Notes under the pieces: model-generated
The model's database searches: none
What the model was told of the DNA's origin: nothing
The model's input: the letters and a program-made list of their open reading frames with translations, nothing else
From: an uncultured virus (IMG/VR IMGVR_UViG_3300010233_002389)
Lineage: Duplodnaviria > Heunggongvirae > Uroviricota > Caudoviricetes
Length of the DNA: 64,000 bases
Strand: one strand, 5' to 3'
IMG/VR virus record: IMGVR_UViG_3300010233_002389
Position numbers and translations under genes: made by a program
Shown: positions 11,991 through 61,122 of the stretch, in pieces
Position numbering within the stretch: the first letter of the stretch is position 1
Layout: each line of letters starts with the position of its first letter

Positions 11991-12070
11991 GCGTGCGTAA
12001 CCGAGACGAGCTTCTACCTCGCTAATCGTAACGGAAGTTGCAAATGTGGGTTCGAATCCCTCCGCACGTG
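11991..12070 (+). tRNA. atypical tRNA-Arg(TCT)-like RNA lacking a D-arm
   Basis: GCGTGCG/CGCACGT acceptor; CGAG-CTTCTAC-CTCG anticodon arm; GTTCGAATC T-loop; long extra region. Confidence 0.6.
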
Positions 12071-12089: not shown

Positions 12090-12482
12090 ATGAGTTATTC
12101 CGCAGCAGTTATCGATCATTATGAAAACCCAAGAAATGTTGGAACATTAGATAAAAATGATCCAAATGTTGGAACTGGTCTTGTTGGCGCCCCTGCATGC
12201 GGAGATGTTCTTCGTATACAAATAAAAGTTAATACAATTACTGAAATTATAGAAGAAGTAAAATTCAAGAGTTTTGGTTGTGGTTCAGCAATTGCCGCTT
12301 CTTCTCTTGCTACAGAATGGCTAAAAGGAAAAACTATAGATGAAGCCGAAACAATCAAGAACACTATGATTGTCAAAGAGCTTTGTCTTCCACCTGTAAA
12401 GGTGCATTGCAGTGTACTTGCCGAAGACGCAATTAAGTCAGCAATAGATGACTTCAAAAAGAAAAGAGCGGCAATTGGATAA
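12090..12482 (+). CDS. iscU: Fe-S cluster scaffold IscU
   Basis: DHYENPRNVG, GAPACGD, FGCGSAIA, LPPVKVHCS. Confidence 0.95.
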   Translation: MSYSAAVIDHYENPRNVGTLDKNDPNVGTGLVGAPACGDVLRIQIKVNTITEIIEEVKFKSFGCGSAIAASSLATEWLKGKTIDEAETIKNTMIVKELCLPPVKVHCSVLAEDAIKSAIDDFKKKRAAIG

Positions 12483-13050
12483 CGAAAATAATAAAAAGTG
12501 GGTTAAAGTCCATGTGTTAGACATGGATTCCTTTGAAATTATCGAAATGGAATTAGAAGAAGAACATCTCAAAGCTATGGAGCAAGCTGAAGAAGAAGCA
12601 AAGTTGCGTTCCGAAGCAGCAGAAGCAGAAGATAGAGAAATAGTATATCACGCAATACAACGCGCCAAATGGGAAGAAGAACAAGAAAGAATCCGTTGGA
12701 TAGATGAACAAGCTAAATCTTATATAGAAGATGATTCTTTTTATATGTCCATAAATGATGAAGACCTTGCGGCAATGGATAAAATTAGCGATGAAACAGA
12801 GGCTAGCTTCGAAGATGCCCGCATGGAAGAATGTATAAACTATCGCTATGATAAGGATTAATGGAAACGGTTATAGTAGAACCAAAGAATGGATACACAG
12901 ACGAAGAAGTAATAAATATACTTAAAGTATGGGGATGTTATTACATCGAGAAACTTACCGATGGATTTATCGAAGCAGATATCAGTGAAGTATATTTAAC
13001 ATGGCTAGAGAAGATAGCTATCGTTCATTGCAAAACAAATAAGAGGATGT

Positions 13051-13395
13051 ATGGACTCCACGGGCTGCCAAATTTATCTATCTACAAGAGCTTTAGAAAA
13101 GATTAAAGAACAATTAGTCGCACGCAAAACTCCCGATGCTGCATTGCGCTTGGGGCTTCGTTCTGGCGGCTGCTCTGGCTATTCCTACGTAATACAATTT
13201 GAAGATGACCCTCCATCAGATAGAGACCATCAATTTGAATTTGATGGCGTTAAAGTATTTGTTGATAAGAAGAGTATGATTTATCTTGCGGGAATAACTC
13301 TTGATTGGGAAAAGAGTTTATCATGCCAAGGATTCAAAATTATAAACGAAAAAGAAAAAACAAAATGTGGATGTGGACTATCATTTTCAGTATAG
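13051..13395 (+). CDS. iscA: Fe-S cluster assembly A-type carrier (IscA/HesB)
   Basis: GGCSGYSY, VDKKS, CGCGLSF. Confidence 0.9.
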   Translation: MDSTGCQIYLSTRALEKIKEQLVARKTPDAALRLGLRSGGCSGYSYVIQFEDDPPSDRDHQFEFDGVKVFVDKKSMIYLAGITLDWEKSLSCQGFKIINEKEKTKCGCGLSFSV

Positions 13396-14451: not shown

Positions 14452-15279
14452 ATGTGTATGACCGTAAAAGCAGCTAAATTATCCAATACATTTCTTTATG
14501 CCGGCGAAGCAGAACTTAATGGCAAGTATGTTCACGTACTAGCCTATCAAAACAAAGCAGAGTCATCTGGTCCAAACGCAATGATCTTACCGTTCCCATC
14601 CAATGTGAAAATGGATGAAAACAATATACTAGATACTCGTTCATATAAAGAGTTTTTAAAAAATATTGCGATGGCGACTAAAGAACAAACAAGAGATTTA
14701 TCAGATGATATCAATTTAAAATCTATAAGAAAGAGAAGCGCCAAAGTCTTTGACGTTGGTTCTTACACAGTTGTATTAGCCGAAAAAGCTATCCATATAA
14801 AAAAGGCAATTGAAAAAGTACCAGAAGATAAACGCCCAAGTATATCAAAAGAATTTCTTTCAGATTACACTAAGCTTTACCCAGACCAGCAAGTTGCCAT
14901 TTGTTGCTGGAATGGAAACATCAATCCTGAGCCATTACTTTGGTGGTACGAACCAACGAATAGAGAAAACATCTTTGTGCCAACAATGGATGCTCATGAC
15001 GGTAATGGTCCAGACCTTAATGCTAAGGTACAAAGAGATCATATTATTTCTACCGGCGCAACTACCCGTTCATTAATCGATAAGTTACCATTTAAAGACT
15101 ATACAAGCAGCACAGTTGACTACACAGATAATTTACCAGAAACAGCAAAGCAATTATTACCTACACGTGTTTGGGGAATAAAGATAGACGATTTTATAAA
15201 AAATGGTGATATGTTCATTGAGCCTTTTTCGACTATTAATGTAAATGATCGTCGCATTAAGATGATGGGCTGGGAATGA
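14452..15279 (+). CDS. hypothetical protein
   Basis: 275-aa ORF in a co-directional run; family not recognised with confidence. Confidence 0.6.
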   Translation: MCMTVKAAKLSNTFLYAGEAELNGKYVHVLAYQNKAESSGPNAMILPFPSNVKMDENNILDTRSYKEFLKNIAMATKEQTRDLSDDINLKSIRKRSAKVFDVGSYTVVLAEKAIHIKKAIEKVPEDKRPSISKEFLSDYTKLYPDQQVAICCWNGNINPEPLLWWYEPTNRENIFVPTMDAHDGNGPDLNAKVQRDHIISTGATTRSLIDKLPFKDYTSSTVDYTDNLPETAKQLLPTRVWGIKIDDFIKNGDMFIEPFSTINVNDRRIKMMGWE

Positions 15280-16214
15280 AACAGACCGTCGCTTTAGTTA
15301 TAGGCTATCCCGCTTCAGGAAAATCCACCGCTACAGAGAAAATGTTTAAAGATGGCTTTGCTCGCCTCAATAGAGATATTGAGGGCGGCAAACTTGAAGA
15401 CTTATTACCAAAACTAGATGCATTATTAAGCGATGGCAAAAGTGTTGTACTAGATAATACGTATGCGACAATAGCAAAGCGCGCTGGCGTTATAGAGATT
15501 GCAAAGAAGCACAACATACCAATCGAATGCTATCATATGCAAACAACAATCGAAGAGGCGCAGTTCAATGCTTGCAAACGAATGATTGAACGACATGGCA
15601 AAATCCTTACTCCAGAAGAAATTAACAAGAGCAAGGACCCGAACATGATCCCTACTGCCGTATTGTTCAAGTTCAAAAAGGAATTTGAAAAGCCAACAAC
15701 CGATGAGGGCTTTAGTGTTGTTCGTAAGATTAACTTCGTTCGTCAACTTGATTCTTCCTATTCGCAAGCCGCATTAATATTGGACTATGATGGTACATTG
15801 CGTCAGACTATAAATGGCAATGATAAGTATCCAGTTAAACCAGAACAAGTTGCAGCTATGCCTCGTAGGAAAGAAGTGCTCGCCCTATATAAGAAGAAGG
15901 GCTATCTACTATTAGGCGCATCAAACCAAAGCGGCATTGCCAAAGGAGAGTTAACTGAGCAGAATGCTATTGATTGCTTTGAGCAAACAAATAAGCTAAT
16001 TGGTCATAAAGTTGAATATAGTTTCTGCCCGCATAGAATTCCACCACTGACTTGTTATTGCAGGAAGCCGATGTGTGGTTTAGGGGTTACTTTTATAGAA
16101 AAGTATAAGTTAAACCCCAACCAATGCATAATGGTAGGGAATGCAACTTCGGATAAAACATTTTCAAGCCGATGTGGTTTCCAATACGTAGACCAAGCGG
16201 AATTTTTCGCCTGA
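15276..16214 (+). CDS. polynucleotide kinase/3'-phosphatase-like (P-loop kinase + HAD)
   Basis: GYPASGKST, NRD, VVLDNT; LDYDGT, SNQSG, CYCRKP. Confidence 0.85.
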   Translation: MKQTVALVIGYPASGKSTATEKMFKDGFARLNRDIEGGKLEDLLPKLDALLSDGKSVVLDNTYATIAKRAGVIEIAKKHNIPIECYHMQTTIEEAQFNACKRMIERHGKILTPEEINKSKDPNMIPTAVLFKFKKEFEKPTTDEGFSVVRKINFVRQLDSSYSQAALILDYDGTLRQTINGNDKYPVKPEQVAAMPRRKEVLALYKKKGYLLLGASNQSGIAKGELTEQNAIDCFEQTNKLIGHKVEYSFCPHRIPPLTCYCRKPMCGLGVTFIEKYKLNPNQCIMVGNATSDKTFSSRCGFQYVDQAEFFA

Positions 16215-27950: not shown

Positions 27951-28038
27951 TCCAGTCAAGGCAACTCGGTTCGCCGCTAAACTGTTAATTTAGGTATCCC
28001 GCAAGGGTCGTTACTTGGTTCGAATCCAAGGGCTGGAG
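27951..28038 (+). tRNA. tRNA-Asn(GTT) with long variable arm
   Basis: TCCAGTC/GGCTGGA+G73; CTAAA-CTGTTAA-TTTAG; CCC-GCAA-GGG variable hairpin. Confidence 0.8.
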
Positions 28039-28070
28039 CAATTATAAAATGACCGGATATATAATCCGGG

Positions 28071-28973
28071 ATGAAGCCAGATTATGAAGTTGAATGTGTA
28101 CATTGTAACAAAGTATTTGTAGTTAAACGAAAATTATATGTAAGTAAATTACGCAAAAATAAAGAACTTAAATTTTATTGTTCTAAAAAATGTATAACCA
28201 ATGCGTCTAAACGCGGCAAAAATATCAATTGCGCAATATGCAATACTGTAGTTTNNNNNNNNNNAAGAGAAATAGCCAAAGATAATTTTTGTTCTCAAAG
28301 CTGTTCTGCAACATTTCACAATAAACAAAGAAATTTAAATGGCATAACTACAAAAGGAAAAACTAAAAAACTCATATGTAGCAAATGCGAATGTGATTAT
28401 ATAGGTTCTATACATGTAACCAAACATAATAATTTTTGCAAAGATTGTTCTCGTGTTCTCACAAAAGAACGGCGTGATAAGAATAAATGTAAGAAAATAA
28501 CTAAAAATTCAAAATGTATAATTTGCAATATTAACATAAATCATACTGGAAAATATTGCCTCACTTGTCGTACTCAAATTTCTTCGATAAATAGGATTAA
28601 TGCAATAAAGGCTGGTAAAACTAATTTTAAATCAATTAAATGTGAATTTGAATTCAATAATAAATTTATAAAATGCGATTCAAAATTAGAATATTCTTGT
28701 CTTAACTATTTTGTGAATAATTTTGTTGTACTTGATATTGAACGAGCGGAAAAAACGATTCCATATCAATTTAATGGAAAAAATAAAAATTATTTGCCCG
28801 ATTTTAAAATAACAACAAATAATGATACATATATAGTAGAATGTAAAAGTGATGTTGGGTCTAAAACGCTTAATATAAAATGGCATTTTTATAATGAAAC
28901 TTCTAAAATAAAAAAGCAAGTACTAGAAATATGGTGTAAGGCAAATGGATTCAAACATTTTTGGTTTACTTAA
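28071..28973 (+). CDS. Zn-finger + TnsA-like PD-(D/E)xK endonuclease
   Basis: multiple CxxC/CS..C motifs; DSKLE, YLPDF, IVECK; contains a 10-N gap. Confidence 0.7.
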   Translation: MKPDYEVECVHCNKVFVVKRKLYVSKLRKNKELKFYCSKKCITNASKRGKNINCAICNTVVXXXXREIAKDNFCSQSCSATFHNKQRNLNGITTKGKTKKLICSKCECDYIGSIHVTKHNNFCKDCSRVLTKERRDKNKCKKITKNSKCIICNININHTGKYCLTCRTQISSINRINAIKAGKTNFKSIKCEFEFNNKFIKCDSKLEYSCLNYFVNNFVVLDIERAEKTIPYQFNGKNKNYLPDFKITTNNDTYIVECKSDVGSKTLNIKWHFYNETSKIKKQVLEIWCKANGFKHFWFT

Positions 28974-29011: not shown

Positions 29012-29132
29012 GTCTCGGTAGCTCAGCGGTAGAGCAGTCGGCTGTGGGAAGGTGCTGATAATGCAGCTTGGTTCAAAGCCAAACATTCCAAGAATAACCG
29101 ACTCGTCGAAGGTTCAATCCCTTCCCGGGACT
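29012..29132 (+). tRNA. tRNA with 49-nt anticodon-loop insert (Asn GTT or His GTG after removal)
   Basis: GTCTCGG/CCGGGAC; GCTC/GAGC D-stem; GTCGG/CCGAC anticodon stem enclosing 56 nt; GAAGG-TTCAATC-CCTTC. Confidence 0.75.
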
Positions 29133-29145
29133 CTAATAAAAATTT

Positions 29146-29218
29146 GCCACTGTCGTATTCATGGTTGAGACCGCTGTCTGAAGAGCAGACGAAAGCTGAT
29201 CGTAACAGCTCGGTGGCA
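29146..29218 (+). tRNA. tRNA-Phe(GAA)
   Basis: GCCACTG/CGGTGGC; loop CTGAAGA; atypical T-loop ATCGTAA. Confidence 0.75.
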
Positions 29219-29226
29219 CAAAAAAA

Positions 29227-39058: not shown

Positions 39059-39595
39059 ATGAATGATAAAGAACTTACAAAAAAATCAAAAAAATTATCT
39101 TATATCTTGCGTCATGATCCTAAGAGTGCTAGCTTGGTGCTCGATAATGCCGGATGGGTAAGTACAAGTAAGCTTCTAACTGCAACAGCTATGACTTCTG
39201 AAGAGCTTGATTGGGTTGTAGCTAACAATAATAAAAAACGGTTTGAGTTCAACGCTGATAAGACGCAGATACGAGCAAGCCAGGGTCATAGTGTAGAAGT
39301 AGATTTGGAATATGAACCTACAAAACCACCAGATGTACTGTATCATGGAACCGCCGTTCACTTTTACGATAACATCATGTTATATGGTCTGAAGAAAATG
39401 GATAGGCATCATGTACATTTATCTATAGACATTAAAACCGCAAAAACTGTTGGAAGTAGAAAAGGAACACCAATTGTATTAGAGATAAATGCAAAACAAA
39501 TGTATGAACAGGGGAAAGATTTTTATTTATCAACAAATGGAGTATGGTTAACTGACTATATACCATCAATCAATATTAAAAAAATAAGCATATAA
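39059..39595 (+). CDS. kptA: RNA 2'-phosphotransferase (KptA/Tpt1)
   Basis: SKKLSYILRH, KKRF, IRASQGHS, LYHGT, RHHVHLS, NGVWL. Confidence 0.95.
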   Translation: MNDKELTKKSKKLSYILRHDPKSASLVLDNAGWVSTSKLLTATAMTSEELDWVVANNNKKRFEFNADKTQIRASQGHSVEVDLEYEPTKPPDVLYHGTAVHFYDNIMLYGLKKMDRHHVHLSIDIKTAKTVGSRKGTPIVLEINAKQMYEQGKDFYLSTNGVWLTDYIPSINIKKISI

Positions 39596-39628: not shown

Positions 39629-42115
39629 ATGAAATTAAAACTTTCAGTATTGTATTTTATTATAGCTATTTGCTTTATAGCATGTAGTCCAACAAACAAA
39701 TCAGATGATGACATTTCATCAGTTAGCCAAGCTCTATCAGGTCCTATTGCTGCGTATGCATTTGAAGAAGGGTCCGGAAACAAAACAAACGAAATTTCTG
39801 GAAACTCAGCACTTCAGGGAACACTTTATAATAATGTTGGGTGGACAAATTCAGGTAAACACGGGAAAGGAGTAACCTTCCCAAGTGGTGGAACTTTTAT
39901 TCAAATTAATGATGCCACTTCTCTTCATCTCACTACTGGAATGACTTTATCAGCTTGGGTTAATCCAACAAGCACAAATTATTCAACAGCAGTTATTGCT
40001 AAAGAAGGCTCAAGCAATCCTAATTATGCATTATATGCTGGCAATGGTTCTAACATCCCTAAAGTTCAGTACACAAAATCCAACGCAACAAAAACAGTTA
40101 CTGATACAACTTCTGCTGTAGGTGCTTGGAATTATATTGCCGGCACATATGATGGAACAACACTTAAGATCTATCGTAATGGAGTATTAACAGCCAGTGC
40201 CGCACAACCATCACCTATCGATACATCAACCGGCTGGCTAGAAATAGGTTCTGATACTAATAATTCTGCTTATTTTCGTGGTACAATTGATGATGTGCGT
40301 ATTTATAATCGCGCTCTTTCGCTTGCTGAAATTCAAAGCGACATGAATACAGGAGTTGGACAAACTCCAGCTGACTCTGGAGCAGATGTGGCTGCCGAAG
40401 CATCAAATGACGCTACTACTGATGTAGACGCTACAACTGATGTAAATACAGATGCAACAGATGCGAAAACAGATGCTGATGCTACAGCTGACGCTACGAC
40501 TGATGTAAATACAGACGCAACAGATGCGAAAACAGACGCTGATGCAACAGCAGCCGATGCAACAAATGATGCAACAAATACAGATGCAACTGCTGACGCA
40601 ACTGCTGACGCAACTGCTGACGCAACTGCTGACGCAACTGCTGACGCAACAAATGATGCAACTACAGATGCAACTGCTGACGCAGTTGCTGATGTGGCTG
40701 CGGATACAGCTACCGATGTAGTTACAGATACAACAGCTGATGTATCAGTAGATGTAATTGCTGAGGCTGAAGCTGCCAGTCCTGAACCCACACCTGAACC
40801 AACTATTGAAGCTGGACCAGATGCAGAAGCCTCGTCCCCTCCATTCGATGCTGGTCCCAGTATGTTTCCTCTTAAGTTAGTACCAGGAAAACATTATTTA
40901 GCCGATCAAAATAATAAGCCTTTCTTAATTCAAGGCGATTCATCGTGGTCTCTTGGTATTAATACGCAACCAGCTGACGTAGATGCATTTTTAACAGATC
41001 GCGTTGCTAAAGGGTTTAATACTGTGTTTCTTCAAATGGAAGATACAAACCGGAATGGTGACGGAAGCATTACTGCAAATGCACAGGGAGCCTATCCATT
41101 TTTAGTTACTGGTGATTTTTCTACGCCAAATAATACTTATTTTACATATATTGATTCAGTACTTCAAAAAGCATTAGCCCAAAATATTTTAGTATTAATG
41201 TTTCCAACCTATTTAGGATATAATGGACTGGGACAAGGAGTTGCCCCACAGATGCAAGCAAGTGGGATTGCAAAACTTCAAACTTATGGTTCATATTTGG
41301 GTAATCGTTACAAATATTATCCTAATATTATTTGGGTTCAAGGTGGAGATAATAATGAATCTGTTAATATTCCGCTTGTAGATGCCGTTGCTACTGCAAT
41401 TAAAACAGCCGATCCTTTGCACCTTCAAACTGTCCATTATTTTACAGATTTCACGGCAAGTTCAACTTACGGAAATTATTCATGGCTTGATATGGATACT
41501 AATTATCAACAAAACCCAAGCATATTTAATGCGGTGGTAAGCCAATATAATCTTTCTGGCTCACGACCAAGTTTCTTAATTGAATCATATTATGAAGCAA
41601 GAGAAACTTTATCACAAAATTGGGGAATTATTGCAAGCCCACAAACAGTTCGACAAGAAGCTTATGAACCAATTATTGGTGGTAGTGGACAAATGTTCGG
41701 AAATGAAGTTACTTGGCATTTTGCTACTGGATGGCAATCAACACTAAATAGCCAAGGCGCACTTGATATGCAAAAACTACATTCATTAATTACTCCTCGT
41801 CATTGGGAGCTTTTAGTACCAGACCAAACTAATTCATTCTTAGTTGCTGGCGCCGGCTCAGGTACAACTAAAGCATCAGCCGCAAGAGCTTCTGATGGAA
41901 CGTGGGGTATAATTTATATTCCTAATTCGCGCAACATAACAATTGATTTGTCAGGATTTTCTCATCCTGTTACAGGTAAATGGTTTGACCCAACATCTGG
42001 AACAATCACTCCATTTCAGTGTTCTGCATTTAATAATTGTGGCTCACTTCCAATTACATCAACTCCAGGAAATAATTCTTCTGGCGATACTGATTGGGTT
42101 TTATTATTCGAATAA
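39629..42115 (+). CDS. lipoprotein with LamG-like domain, DA/T-rich linker, DUF4038 glycoside hydrolase-like and C-terminal beta domain
   Basis: lipobox FIAC; TYDG...IDDVRIYNRALS; KPFLIQGDSSW, KGFN, NIIWVQGGD, ESYYE, WFDP, DWVL. Confidence 0.8.
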   Translation: MKLKLSVLYFIIAICFIACSPTNKSDDDISSVSQALSGPIAAYAFEEGSGNKTNEISGNSALQGTLYNNVGWTNSGKHGKGVTFPSGGTFIQINDATSLHLTTGMTLSAWVNPTSTNYSTAVIAKEGSSNPNYALYAGNGSNIPKVQYTKSNATKTVTDTTSAVGAWNYIAGTYDGTTLKIYRNGVLTASAAQPSPIDTSTGWLEIGSDTNNSAYFRGTIDDVRIYNRALSLAEIQSDMNTGVGQTPADSGADVAAEASNDATTDVDATTDVNTDATDAKTDADATADATTDVNTDATDAKTDADATAADATNDATNTDATADATADATADATADATADATNDATTDATADAVADVAADTATDVVTDTTADVSVDVIAEAEAASPEPTPEPTIEAGPDAEASSPPFDAGPSMFPLKLVPGKHYLADQNNKPFLIQGDSSWSLGINTQPADVDAFLTDRVAKGFNTVFLQMEDTNRNGDGSITANAQGAYPFLVTGDFSTPNNTYFTYIDSVLQKALAQNILVLMFPTYLGYNGLGQGVAPQMQASGIAKLQTYGSYLGNRYKYYPNIIWVQGGDNNESVNIPLVDAVATAIKTADPLHLQTVHYFTDFTASSTYGNYSWLDMDTNYQQNPSIFNAVVSQYNLSGSRPSFLIESYYEARETLSQNWGIIASPQTVRQEAYEPIIGGSGQMFGNEVTWHFATGWQSTLNSQGALDMQKLHSLITPRHWELLVPDQTNSFLVAGAGSGTTKASAARASDGTWGIIYIPNSRNITIDLSGFSHPVTGKWFDPTSGTITPFQCSAFNNCGSLPITSTPGNNSSGDTDWVLLFE
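40425..40685 (+). repeat. coding tandem repeats (about 60-bp duplication and 12-bp GCAACTGCTGAC run)
   Basis: DATTDVNTDATDAKTDA x2; ATAD x5. Confidence 0.85.
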
Positions 42116-42159
42116 ATAATTAACAAATATAAAAACTAAAAAGAAAAGGTAAAATAAAA

Positions 42160-44205
42160 ATGAATAAAATATTCACAATTGTGTTGTTGTTTTTATTGGT
42201 CGCTTGTTCTCCATCAGGAACTGATTTTATTGGACAAACAAAACAAAAATTATCTGGTCCTGTTGCCGCATATGCATTTGAAGAAGGGTCCGGATATAAA
42301 GCAAACGAAATCTCCGGTAACAGCGCCCTTCAAGGAACACTTTATAATGGTGTTGGATGGACTAATTCAGGTAAACATGGAAATGGAGTCACTTTCCCAT
42401 CTGGAGGAACATTTATACAAATCAATGATGCGGCTTCACTTCATTTAACAACAGGGATGACGCTATCAGCTTGGGTTAACCCAACTAGTACGAACTATCC
42501 AGGAGCGGTAATCGCAAAAGAAGGTTCCAGTAATCCAAATTATGCTTTATTTGCCGGTACAGGAACAAATATTCCACAAATCCAATATACAAATAATAAC
42601 ATAACAAAGTCAATCAGTGATACCACTTCGGCTATTGGCTCATGGACATATATAGCTGGTACATATGATGGTACGACTCTTCGTATGTATCGTGATGGTG
42701 TTCTAACCGCTAGTGCCACACAGCCATCACCTATGGATACATCTACCGGATGGCTAGAGATTGGCTCTGATACAAATATTGCTGCTTACTTTCGCGGCAC
42801 AATTGATGATGTACGAGTTTATGATAGAGCATTGTCACAATCTGAAATTCAATCAGACATGAATACTGGGGTTGGGCAAACTCCAGTAGATGCTAGCGTT
42901 GATGCTCCCTCAGATTCTAATACTGAAGCCGAGGCAGCAACCGTCACACCAGAAGCCGGGTCGGAGTCAGGCTCTGACTCAGGCGCGAGTGTTTATCCAT
43001 TAAAACTTGTAACTGGGAAACGGTATCTTGCTGATCAAACTGACAAACCTTTCCTTATGCAAGCTGACACTGCATGGTCTTTACCTGCACGACTACAAGA
43101 TGCCGATGCTGAAATATATTTAGAAGATCGTCGAGTTAAAGGCTTCAACACAGTTTTGATCGAATTAATCAATCATTTGGATGGACCAAGCGGGATTAAC
43201 AATGCCTACAACATCGCGCCATTCAACGTACCTGGTGATTTCTCAACGCCAAATGACGCCTACTTTACGTATATAGATGCTGTCTTACAGAAAGCGCTTT
43301 CCAAGAACCTCCTCGTAATTGCTTTTCCAGCTTATCTTGGTTATACGGGAACGAATGAGGGGTGGATGGCGGAGATGATCACAAGTGGAGCTACGAAATG
43401 CGCTGCATATGGGACCTATCTTGGCAATCGTTACAAGAACTATCCAAACATTATTTGGGCGAACGGTGGAGATGACTCAACAGCAGATAAATCACTTGTG
43501 GATGCCATCGCGTCCGCCATCCGGGCAGCCGGCGCAACACAATTGCAGACGGCACATGCTTACCCAGACGTTTCAGCTCGTGCCTATTATGGCTCGTACA
43601 CATGGTTGGATGTTGATACTGTATATCGACAAACACCAAGTATTCTAGCAGCTTCATTAGTTGAATATAATCTCGTACCTATAAAACCATTTTTCCTCAT
43701 TGAGTCAGCATACGAGGGCGGAACCACTTCTCCAAACGCGCAAGTAGTTCGCCAAGAAGCTTATGAACCATTACTTGGCGGTGGTTTTGGACAATTTTTC
43801 GGCAATTACCCACTTTGGATCTTCGACTCAGGATGGCAAGCCGCACTTAATAGCCAGGGGTCATTGGACATGCAACGACTTCATACGCTATTCACATCTC
43901 GACGATGGGATCTCCTCGTTCCAGATCAGACTTCGGCGTTTATAACATCAGGCGGGTCAGGAATATCTGCCGCACGTGCATCAGATGGTTCTTGGGGAAT
44001 TGTTTATATTCCTACAACTCGCAACATGATGATTGACTTATCTGGATTCTCACATCCAGTTAATGCAAAATGGTTTGACCCAACCAATGGAACATATACA
44101 ACTATTCAATGTTCTCCATTCAATAATTGCGGAACTCGGTCAATATTATCTACTCCTGGTAATAATAGCGCTGGCGACCAAGATTGGATTTTAGTATTTG
44201 AATAA
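42160..44205 (+). CDS. paralogous LamG + DUF4038-like lipoprotein
   Basis: lipobox LVAC; near-identical LamG region to 39629; shorter linker. Confidence 0.8.
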   Translation: MNKIFTIVLLFLLVACSPSGTDFIGQTKQKLSGPVAAYAFEEGSGYKANEISGNSALQGTLYNGVGWTNSGKHGNGVTFPSGGTFIQINDAASLHLTTGMTLSAWVNPTSTNYPGAVIAKEGSSNPNYALFAGTGTNIPQIQYTNNNITKSISDTTSAIGSWTYIAGTYDGTTLRMYRDGVLTASATQPSPMDTSTGWLEIGSDTNIAAYFRGTIDDVRVYDRALSQSEIQSDMNTGVGQTPVDASVDAPSDSNTEAEAATVTPEAGSESGSDSGASVYPLKLVTGKRYLADQTDKPFLMQADTAWSLPARLQDADAEIYLEDRRVKGFNTVLIELINHLDGPSGINNAYNIAPFNVPGDFSTPNDAYFTYIDAVLQKALSKNLLVIAFPAYLGYTGTNEGWMAEMITSGATKCAAYGTYLGNRYKNYPNIIWANGGDDSTADKSLVDAIASAIRAAGATQLQTAHAYPDVSARAYYGSYTWLDVDTVYRQTPSILAASLVEYNLVPIKPFFLIESAYEGGTTSPNAQVVRQEAYEPLLGGGFGQFFGNYPLWIFDSGWQAALNSQGSLDMQRLHTLFTSRRWDLLVPDQTSAFITSGGSGISAARASDGSWGIVYIPTTRNMMIDLSGFSHPVNAKWFDPTNGTYTTIQCSPFNNCGTRSILSTPGNNSAGDQDWILVFE

Positions 44206-46188: not shown

Positions 46189-46262
46189 GTGCTTATAGCT
46201 CAATGGTAGAGCGGGAAAATTCTAACTTTTATCGGTTGGTGGTTCAAGTCCACTTAAGCACA
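46189..46262 (+). tRNA. probable amber suppressor tRNA(CTA); alternative Arg(TCT)
   Basis: GTGCTTA/TAAGCAC; AAAA-TTCTAAC-TTTT gives a canonical U32-U33-CUA-A37 loop; the TCT register needs A32 and an A-C closing pair. Confidence 0.6.
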
Positions 46263-46379
46263 CTTTTTGTTTTTGACGATCAATATAACGCTTAATTGCA
46301 GTCCCACTTACACCAAATATTCTTCCCAATTCTTCATAACTGTGATTTTTGGTTAGTTCAATAAGTTTATAGGGCACAA

Positions 46380-47576: not shown

Positions 47577-47581
47577 AATTT

Positions 47582-47652
47582 GCGCCCATAGCTCAAAGGA
47601 AGAGCAGCGTTCTCTAAAAATGCGGTTGAGATGTCGGAATTCTCTGGGCGCG
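47582..47652 (+). tRNA. amber suppressor tRNA(CTA)
   Basis: GCGCCCA/TGGGCGC+G73; GCTC/GAGC; GCGTT-CTCTAAA-AATGC; T-arm GAGAT-GTCGGAA-TTCTC. Confidence 0.8.
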
Positions 47653-47654
47653 CA

Positions 47655-50223: not shown

Positions 50224-50297
50224 GGTGTTTATAGCTTAATTGGTAAAGCATCTGACTATGAATCAGAAAGTCGGGAGTTCGAATCTCCTTAAACACC
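50224..50297 (+). tRNA. tRNA-His(ATG)
   Basis: encoded G-1 and C73; TCTGA-CTATGAA-TCAGA; TTCGAAT. Confidence 0.85.
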
Positions 50298-50299
50298 CT

Positions 50300-55536: not shown

Positions 55537-56054
55537 AATATACTAAGGAATTATTAGAAGAATTAGTAAAAGATTGTTTTTCGGTTCATCAGGTTATGAA
55601 AAAGCTTGGATTGAAACTTACAGGCGGATCGCATACTCATTTATCTTCCAGATTGAAAAAATATAATATAGATATTTCACATTTTACTGGTAATGCTACA
55701 AATAAAGGAATTAACCATAAGTGTGGTAATTTGCCTTTGCATAAAGATAAAATATTAGTTTTAGACAGATTGAATGGAAGGCGAGAATCTTCATTTAGAT
55801 TAAGAAGAGCAATGGTTCAGCACGGCATTCAAGAAAAATGTAAAAAATGCAAATTAGAATCACTATGGAATGGTAAGCCACTTAAACTACATATAGATCA
55901 TAAGAATGGAAATGGTTGTGATAATAGACCAAATAATTTAAGATTCTTATGCCCTAATTGTCATTCGCAAACAAGTAATTACGGCGCTTTGAATATAAAA
56001 AAAGTCAACGTGGTGGAACGGCAGACACAATTGGCTAAGAACCAATCGCTTTAA
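55533..56054 (+). CDS. HNH homing endonuclease overlapping tRNA-Leu(AAG)
   Basis: CKKC...HIDHKNGNGCDNRPNNLRFLCPNCHSQT. Confidence 0.9.
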   Translation: MKYTKELLEELVKDCFSVHQVMKKLGLKLTGGSHTHLSSRLKKYNIDISHFTGNATNKGINHKCGNLPLHKDKILVLDRLNGRRESSFRLRRAMVQHGIQEKCKKCKLESLWNGKPLKLHIDHKNGNGCDNRPNNLRFLCPNCHSQTSNYGALNIKKVNVVERQTQLAKNQSL

Positions 56055-56085
56055 CAGCATGAGAGTTCGAGTCTCTCCGTTGGCA
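56004..56085 (+). tRNA. tRNA-Leu(AAG)
   Basis: GTCAACG/CGTTGGC; ATTGG-CTAAGAA-CCAAT; close paralog of the Leu(TAG) gene. Confidence 0.9.
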
Positions 56086-56420
56086 CGAGTTAAATAATAT
56101 AATGAGAAATAAAATAAAGAGAACTCATCGCTCAAGCTTCAAGCCAGTTGGCACGGCAACCCTAGCTAGAGAAGACCTTCGTAGCAATAAGATTAAGGTC
56201 AAGGGGCGTCCCACAATAAAGAAAATATTAACTAAAGAGCTAGGTAAGGAAAAAGCCCAAGAGTTAATAGAAAGCTTTATAGACGACCTTCTAGATAAAT
56301 ATAAAGGCATTATGCCGTCTGGGTCATCTTCGACATATAGTAGTAGAAGCGATTTTGGCGGGCATAATTATAATTGTACTGCCTGTGGACATTGTGGATA
56401 TAATCATTTAGGATAATATT

Positions 56421-61029: not shown

Positions 61030-61122
61030 GGGACTGTAGCTTAGACGTAAAGCGCCTGTAAAACGATGTAGCCTCTTAGCAGAGGTTCGGAGATGAAGAA
61101 TCGACCCCTTCCAGTTCCACCA
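61030..61122 (+). tRNA. Ala-identity tRNA-like RNA with enlarged anticodon arm
   Basis: GGGACTG/CAGTTCC with G3:U70 and ACCA end; GCTT/AAGC D-stem; about 36-nt anticodon region with AGCCTC-TTAGCA-GAGGTT. Confidence 0.65.

Follow-up and report, generated by a model that had tools for sequence, protein, structure and literature searches.

A tRNA gene with 49 surplus nucleotides in its anticodon loop

The window analysed here, a stretch of 64,000 nucleotides from an uncultured virus (IMG/VR record IMGVR_UViG_3300010233_002389), carries at positions 29012-29132 a tRNA gene with an anticodon loop of 56 nt, that is, with 49 surplus nucleotides, and it raises the question of what this insert is, whether it is removed from the transcript and by what means. 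A preliminary description of this DNA had reported an intact cloverleaf with an anticodon loop oversized by 49 nt, and this is borne out by the Rfam tRNA model RF00005, whose match (49.3 bits, E 1.5e-7, model positions 1-71) spans the whole gene; acceptor, D, anticodon and T arms are all present. Plain ARAGORN missed the gene, and its intron mode reported a 49-nt intron, yet gave the type as Ile(AAT).

All parts of the gene lie on the plus strand. The 5' exon (29012-29045) comprises the acceptor 5' strand, the D arm, the anticodon stem and loop positions 32-35 (C-U-G-U), after which the insert (29046-29094) sits between positions 35 and 36, and the 3' exon (29095-29132) continues with U36-A37-A38, the stems, the T arm and the discriminator U73. 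When all six possible 49-nt cuts were listed, we recovered both outcomes proposed earlier, as the cut 29046-29094 gives GTT and the cut 29048-29096 gives GTG, the latter with G37. Removal of 29046-29094 leaves a 7-nt loop with the anticodon GUU, as in tRNA-Asn(GUU). G73 is a tRNA-Asn identity element, kept in 69 of the 72 Asn-type hosts among the relatives described below, and U73 in the window is thus atypical for Asn. As a second tRNA-Asn(GUU) gene, uninterrupted and bearing G73 and a long variable arm, lies 1 kb upstream on the plus strand (27952-28040), the interrupted copy is dispensable; considering both this gene and U73, it may be poorly charged or decaying. The long variable arm of the second gene is closed by a GCAA loop, which is unusual for Asn, and tRNA-Asn of this long-armed type occurs also in another insert-bearing phage (G004, L586:8226-8310).

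The insert is a nested tRNA reduced to its acceptor stem and T arm

Counted from the T loop, 29046 is position 1, 29090 is position 72 and 29091-29094 are positions 73-76. The insert therefore has the complete outline of a tRNA from 1 to 76, in which 14 bases replace the D, anticodon and variable arms. Its acceptor 5' strand (positions 1-7) occupies 29046-29052, a small hairpin in place of the missing arms 29054-29067, the T arm (positions 49-65) 29067-29083, with its loop at 29072-29078, and the acceptor 3' strand (positions 66-72) together with the tail 73-76 occupies 29084-29094, all on the plus strand; the tail reads A, then GAA instead of CCA. The acceptor-like stem GGAAGGT/ACATTCC(A), the hairpin GCTG/CAGC and the T arm noticed earlier were all found where they had been placed. 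The small hairpin is not a family trait, since RNAalifold predicts no conserved pair in the middle region of the relatives. There are two kinds of mismatch, a G.A in the acceptor stem (G1.A72) and a C.A in the T stem; with nine of the 12 pairs of the acceptor and T stack, the T loop, G+1 and U-1, the insert has the features of an RNase P substrate.

Folded alone, the insert is no better than chance (z -0.90 against shuffles; z -1.77 for the whole gene). The significance of its structure thus comes from its relatives and not from the fold of a single sequence.

The insert belongs to a widespread family of tRNAs inside tRNAs

Inserts of this kind are present in phages and in some bacterial chromosomes. 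An exon-only pattern returned 27 loci from IMG/VR, 26 of them with inserts of 48-51 nt after the identical base, and the set was widened with four further viral patterns without the demand for TAA, with a GTDB scan (36 loci, of which 20 could be resolved into a host and a nested T arm) and with a metagenome scan (at least 120 loci, 98 parsed); two loose IMG/VR patterns gave mostly chance hits among the matches listed. Because a T-loop motif was obligatory in the patterns, as was one D-arm motif in most of them, and the GTDB and metagenome scans demanded TAA, the set is biased and all counts are lower bounds. It holds at least 139 distinct oversize loops, of which 120 passed a filter (nested T arm plus five of seven acceptor pairs in some register) that inflates the pairing figures, and these form at least 86 clusters at 80% identity. 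In the 73 in-register clusters the insert lies at 35/36 or 34/35 and is 43-77 nt long, and the restored anticodons are GTT (38), TTT (14), TCT (8), TGT (6), CAT (2) and five singles, two assignments in the cluster table being misregistered by a bulge.

The fold is kept in these relatives. RNAalifold on 24 other short inserts, an alignment that leaves out the window insert and its closest relative, gave the same acceptor and T-arm fold, with two-sided changes in 10 of 11 pairs; 87.5% of the cells pair, in comparison to 51.5% after shuffling (a level of 87.5% was reached in 0 of 500 shuffles), and covariation is 0.944, versus 0.203 when shuffled and at most 0.217 with slid partners. Lack of a conserved insert structure in homologs had been named in advance as part of what would refute the earlier reading, and the opposite was found. 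A model built from the same 24 inserts placed 29046-29094, with exact ends, at the top of its 15 matches in the window, even though the score is weak (18.6 bits, E 0.056) and the runner-up, an ordinary tRNA, reached 17.2; the remaining matches were ordinary tRNA halves or noise. G53-C61, U54, C56 and A58 of the T arm do not vary within the set, but these bases had been demanded by both the search patterns and the parser, and outside the T loop there is almost no conserved sequence in inserts of 43-51 nt. Long members of the family are homologous to tRNAs, as they keep D and anticodon arms and two of them score as tRNAs (L428, 49.9 bits; L289, 43.1 bits), and the host bodies are canonical.

Among cultured phages, BLAST with the window gene gave short exon matches alone, in 39 records, and the inserts of two relatives (L293 and L287) had no full-length match. 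Three archaeal loci in Micrarchaeota and Nanoarchaeota bins (L435, L438, L444) matched a pattern and have anticodon inserts of 45-49 nt, but they lack a clear nested T arm and were rejected as family members; the inserts of L435 and L444 open with a copy of the anticodon arm of the tRNA that holds them. Anticodon inserts of 29-48 nt that lack a nested T arm were seen at L007:999-1101, L021:1840-1981, L584:10833-10941, L284:134-238 and L012:1481-1591; they include hairpin types, in genes that are Phe-like or Gly-like, and one repeat-like insert from a giant-virus bin. The mini-tRNA model also matched G003:C1:235195-235239 (L647) with 23.7 bits, at a distance from the tRNA clusters in this record.

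The borders follow the nested tRNA and not the host tRNA

The register was set from the 3' count only. Acceptor pairs 2-7 then average 5.32 of 6 in 85 clusters, versus 2.59 in shuffled controls and 3.26 or 2.67 after a one-base shift of the register. Where the register is unique, in 61 clusters, the 3' end falls at 76 in 40, at 74 in 14, at 73 in 7 and at 75 in none; a true CCA at 74-76 (N-CCA) is present in 18 of 50 four-base tails, and both 74 and 76 ends are found inside single Armatimonas genomes. The 12 of 85 clusters that are off register contain bulges or a 5' leader, and the leader-bearing types resemble the introns of Lak phages discussed below.

In the 34/35 cases the 5' exon is one base shorter and the 3' exon one base longer. 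One insert family, in the same tRNA, sits at 35/36 in L488 and at 34/35 in L526, and although this is a single pair, both borders shift together, so they follow the nested tRNA and not the host tRNA. Alleles without the insert join at 35/36 and fix its borders; they were found in L007-type phages (5 of 22 DNA copies), at the Armatimonas Lys locus and in Arg genes. Regardless of what precedes the insert, 51 of 55 distinct loops end in TAA.

The insert is very probably removed across the family

Three lines of evidence, none of them final, bear on removal: the need for the interrupted gene, RNA contigs, and the conservation of host and insert over deep divergence. Taken across the family, we consider removal very probable.

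As for need, inserts occur in the cultured phage Atu_ph07 and in chromosomes of Armatimonas and Planctomycetota. Atu_ph07 carries two interrupted genes, Asn(GTT) at NC_042013 323905-324023 and Lys(TTT) at 68159-68280, both left unannotated in its record, and no other Asn(GTT) or Lys(TTT) gene was found there among 31 ARAGORN calls in 131 of its 490 kb or with patterns run over the whole record. The bacterial inserts lie among housekeeping genes (truA-rplM-rpsI, pyk, tpiA). Comparisons of these cellular genomes concern incomplete MAGs. In 32 genomes of Armatimonadaceae, Arg(TCT) is interrupted in seven and intact in five, and never both; at the orthologous nadB-pyk locus of Armatimonas, the Lys(TTT) alleles differ by exactly the insert, with flanks 91% and 93% identical. 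In a sample of 251 Gemmatales genomes the intact Lys allele is present in 103 and absent from both insert-bearing genomes, with the caveat that one of the Lys cases (G010) has one further Lys-like motif. Against need, the window and three other records (G002, G003 and G004) each have another Asn gene. Close to the interrupted Lys gene of Atu_ph07 (about 1 kb away) lies FDI40_gp086 (NC_042013 66519-67163, L650), annotated as hypothetical, which matches the RNA ligase family PF09414 (E 6e-25), and an HNH gene is found just upstream of that tRNA.

As for RNA, 4 of 24 listed RNA runs were compared, as contigs and not as reads, with L007, a relative of the window. Contigs of three of these four runs (X1, X2 and X8) skip the 51-nt insert of L007 exactly, with a joint that slides by 2; X1 and X8 contain both forms, and X6 only the unspliced one. 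The joined contig of X2 extends 144 bases on either side, and its upstream flank (one mismatch and a 4-base gap) fits a DNA haplotype that was seen only with the insert (9 of 9 copies), the five insert-less DNA copies carrying other upstream flanks. Since insert-less DNA strains exist (5 of 22 copies), the RNA joints are suggestive only, and the X2 contig could also have come from an insert-less strain missing among the copies sampled, or from an assembly that passed through the shared exon. Further RNA joints on L007, for instance 1988-2073 and 2244-2337, appear to reflect differences between strains and were set aside.

For the window's own copy, the prospect that it yields a working Asn tRNA is evenly balanced.

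A possible route through RNase P, a tRNA 3' endonuclease and an RNA ligase

RNase P cuts before +1 of an acceptor and T stack, leaving a 3'-OH upstream, and it prefers G+1 and U-1, whereas RNase Z leaves a 5'-phosphate downstream. The acceptor stem and the T arm are the parts of a tRNA seen by such end-processing enzymes. We thus propose that RNase P of the host would cut the precursor before nested +1, leaving a 3'-OH on the 5' exon, and that an RNase Z-type or another tRNA 3' endonuclease would cut after position 73-76, leaving a 5'-phosphate on the 3' exon; the two halves could be kept together by the stems of the host tRNA, and an ATP-dependent RNA ligase of the Rnl1 or Rnl2 type, phage-encoded in phages, would seal them into a 7-nt loop, with GUU in the window. 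It seems somewhat more probable than the contrary that this route operates and, jointly, that the family arose from a whole tRNA that was inserted into the anticodon of a second one and later reduced to its acceptor stem and T arm. That RNase P is the 5' cutter is, taken separately, rather probable, as G+1 in 58 of 73 clusters and U-1 in 60 of 73 fit its preferences.

The preliminary description had suggested that the insert is either protein-spliced or excised by tRNA-processing nucleases and then repaired, and had pointed to PNKP and Tpt1 genes in the window. Excision by nucleases followed by ligation is the best-supported version of this idea. The two genes do exist (a PNKP-like gene at 15276-16214 and a Tpt1/KptA gene at 39059-39595, both on the plus strand, 13 and 10 kb away), but they are context only, because ends left by RNase P and RNase Z, 3'-OH and 5'-phosphate, are suited to ATP-dependent ligases and need no healing.

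What do the phages themselves supply? An Rnl1 ligase (in 14) or a PF09414 ligase is over the cut-off in 20 of the 22 large insert-bearing phage records, and RtcB in 0 of the 22; however, ligases are also found in 8 of 10 comparison phages, so no enrichment emerges, and PF09414 also responds in 6 of 14 control genomes. Within the window neither an RNA ligase family nor ligase motif I was detected, and the gene before PNKP, considered as a ligase candidate, resembles DUF2330-like proteins instead. The splicing endonuclease of the EndA type (PF01974), to which 4 archaeal controls respond, matched in 0 of 27 related records, RNase P RNA was not over the cut-off in any of 21 phage records, and an RNase Z-like fold was found in 1 of 23 insert-bearing phage records, as a partial match. 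The cutters would therefore be either those of the host or unknown ones.

The weak points of the route are the 3' cut, which varies between 73, 74 and 76 even within one genome, and the tail in the window, which is not CCA. According to passages of PMC3161902, RNase Z cuts after N73 and is usually inhibited by CCA and C74, and the Thermotoga type cuts after CCA. In addition, for the types with a 5' leader RNase P alone is insufficient, and an extra step is needed.

Other readings of the nested tRNA

The alternative that survives best, though we regard it as unlikely, is that of a true intron in which at least one of the two cuts is the work of a dedicated, as yet unknown nuclease, or of the RNA, docking on the nested T-loop module, so that the tRNA shape is a handle and not a substrate of RNase P and RNase Z. 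The variable 3' ends and the leader-bearing types speak for it, as does the conservation of the G1.A72 mismatch in 26 of 85 clusters; Lak introns too have a leader hairpin before the nested acceptor, as we read rows of Table S6 in Devoto et al. 2019. On the other hand, phage and bacterial loci share no neighbour gene, EndA was not found, and +1 lies exactly at the RNase P position with the base preferences given above; as for self-cleavage, 43-51 nt with little conserved beyond the T loop leave scant room for a ribozyme core.

It is also conceivable, although quite unlikely for the family, that the insert is never spliced and that its borders record its origin, in which a mature tRNA was sealed into a cleaved anticodon and the product converted back into DNA. 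The gene would then be dead, a decoy for an anticodon nuclease or a source of tRNA halves. The genuine CCA ends suit insertion of a mature tRNA, the RNA joints could stem from insert-less strains, and for the window's own copy, with its U73 (G73 is missing in only 3 of 72 Asn-type hosts) and, as in G002, G003 and G004, another Asn gene at hand, this reading is at its most plausible. Against it, covariation is kept across very diverged inserts, hosts retain their identity bases, and no further copy of the interrupted gene was found in Atu_ph07 or in the bacterial cases; the joined X2 contig with its insert-linked flank argues against it as well.

Of the two products first proposed, Asn and His, only Asn stood. 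A canonical 37/38 intron in tRNA-His, cut by an endonuclease of the archaeal or eukaryotic type and healed by PNKP and Tpt1, would account for the GTG and G37 produced by the cut 29048-29096 and for the presence of both repair genes, but is very improbable. We reject it because loops end in TAA, insert-less alleles join at 35/36, giving GUU in the window, and an intact tRNA-His(GTG) gene is already present there (50300); moreover, when the 35/36 and 34/35 sites were examined for a strict bulge-helix-bulge helix, the window had none of its four pairs and only one of 73 clusters had all four, EndA is missing from the 27 records, and relatives read in this way give a non-purine 37 (L008) and keep G73.

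Group I introns are known at 35/36 of Asn and Asp tRNAs in Patescibacteria (they did not come up in our literature search), but a collapsed group I intron, despite the shared site and the U that precedes the 5' junction in 60 of 73 clusters, is hardly tenable, given that no Rfam group I model matched in the window (E up to 1) or in 10 relatives (E up to 0.1), that the last base is G in only 12 of 73 clusters and A in the window, and that long members are tRNAs; the earlier remark that the insert is too short for a group I intron agrees with this.

Returning to the preferred reading, the boldest form of it is that a class of introns moves among phages and bacterial chromosomes with neither a ribozyme nor a splicing endonuclease, as a tRNA that co-opts RNase P together with a nuclease for tRNA 3' ends and an RNA ligase, and that such protein-assisted tRNA splicing occurs in bacteria, where Armatimonas and some Planctomycetota would use it as a housekeeping step in the decoding of Lys and Arg codons. 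We would give this an even chance.

Surroundings of the interrupted gene

With 15 tRNAs called by ARAGORN, numerous endonuclease genes, EF-Ts and PTH2, the gene content of the window suggests a piece of a large phage genome. A Cys-rich ORF on the plus strand (28071-28973) ends 38 nt before the interrupted tRNA and has a weak match to TnsA-like endonucleases (E 1.7e-5, just under the cut-off); it is a possible homing endonuclease. An endonuclease gene adjoins the interrupted tRNA in the window, in Atu_ph07 (HNH) and in G005 (PD-(D/E)XK), and 2 of 29 neighbouring proteins scanned were of this kind. Since such genes are common in these clusters, homing of the insert together with an adjacent endonuclease is a hint only. 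A promoter scan (14 sites versus 9.2 expected) was uninformative.

Several other features of the window deserve mention. A tRNA-Phe(GAA)-like gene with a degenerate T loop and a weak D arm (29146-29219), called at a lowered ARAGORN threshold only, lies 13 nt downstream of the interrupted tRNA. Two tRNAs have the CUA (amber) anticodon (46189-46263 and 47581-47653), and the ORFs read well under code 11, with TAG ending 10 of 116. A34 anticodons, rare in bacteria, are present in His(AUG) (50225-50298) and Leu(AAG) (56004-56086), and two sub-threshold tRNA-like elements lie at 11991-12070 and 61030-61122 (27.4 bits with Rfam; low-threshold ARAGORN). Two tandem LamG and apiosidase-like proteins are encoded at 39629-44205, and Fe-S genes of the NifU and IscA type at 12090-13395.

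Comparison with known systems

To our knowledge, bacterial tRNA introns have been held to be self-splicing ribozymes. If the proposed route is true, there is in bacteria a new kind of splicing, a tRNA-intron route built from ordinary tRNA-maturation enzymes, which would offer a testable mechanism for the "enigmatic" Lak introns and provide bacterial and large-phage RNA ligases with a standing substrate. An element of 45 nt that is able to excise itself by means of host enzymes might also serve as an RNA tool. Annotation is corrected too, as such genes are missed or mis-assigned (unannotated in Atu_ph07, called Ile in the window), and because a cultured phage for which a laboratory host exists (Agrobacterium C58) carries two examples, the question can be tested at once.

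Each part of the proposed route has its counterpart. In mascRNA and menRNA, and in polycistronic tRNA-gRNA cassettes, RNase P and RNase Z release a tRNA-like module that consists of an acceptor stem and a T arm; the flanks of this module stay apart, whereas in the present family they would be ligated into a tRNA. In phage T4, Rnl1 and PNKP reseal the anticodon loop of a tRNA after the cut of an anticodon nuclease, but this is repair of a nick with a cyclic phosphate and a 5'-OH, which requires healing and involves no intron, while the route proposed for the insert needs no healing. Introns spliced by EndA/TSEN and bacterial group I tRNA introns are also located in the anticodon loop, from which the present inserts differ in having no bulge-helix-bulge, no EndA, no terminal G and no ribozyme core. 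Theta ribozymes are HDV-like, lie outside the tRNA and have no nested tRNA fold. They are nevertheless small structured RNAs tied to tRNA maturation, situated beside phage tRNAs, and the phages that carry them are enriched for a DRB0094-family RNA ligase, according to passages of PMC10879173. The word "intron" is absent from the main text of that paper and of PMC7162821, and PMC8172020 mentions group I introns in tRNAs.

The closest known relatives are the introns of Lak megaphages, which likewise interrupt the anticodon of phage tRNAs. In the passages we consulted, Devoto et al. 2019 (PMC6784885, bioRxiv 10.1101/356790) raise the possibility that a tRNA is encoded by the Thr(TGT) intron and describe an excision point displaced by one base, and these passages give no mechanism, miniature forms or cellular cases. 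In our own reading of 15 of the 20 sequence rows in their Table S6, all four intron types resemble the window insert in having an acceptor-like stem and, close to the 3' end, a T arm. The Lak introns are about 80-140 nt long, carry the 5' leader hairpin and, as we read those rows, lie mostly at 36/37; in contrast, the window type is leaderless, 43-77 nt long, located at 35/36 or 34/35 and starts at nested +1. From the same rows, the Lak genes labelled tRNA-Tyr(GTA) can be re-read as Asn(GTT) with an insert at 35/36, judging by G73, a short variable arm and TAA after the nested acceptor. A jumbo phage survey of 2026, covering 262 alternatively coded genomes, remarks that intronic tRNA sequences "could encode another tRNA" (PMC13037316), an annotation-level remark in a passage that gives no borders, structure or mechanism. 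In the literature searched, mostly outside subscription papers, we found no report of the exact 1-76 borders, the miniature forms, the chromosomal cases or the splicing route. The inserts described here thus represent a minimal form of the kind of tRNA-encoding intron of which Lak phages had given a glimpse, and they are far more widespread than described in the literature we found.
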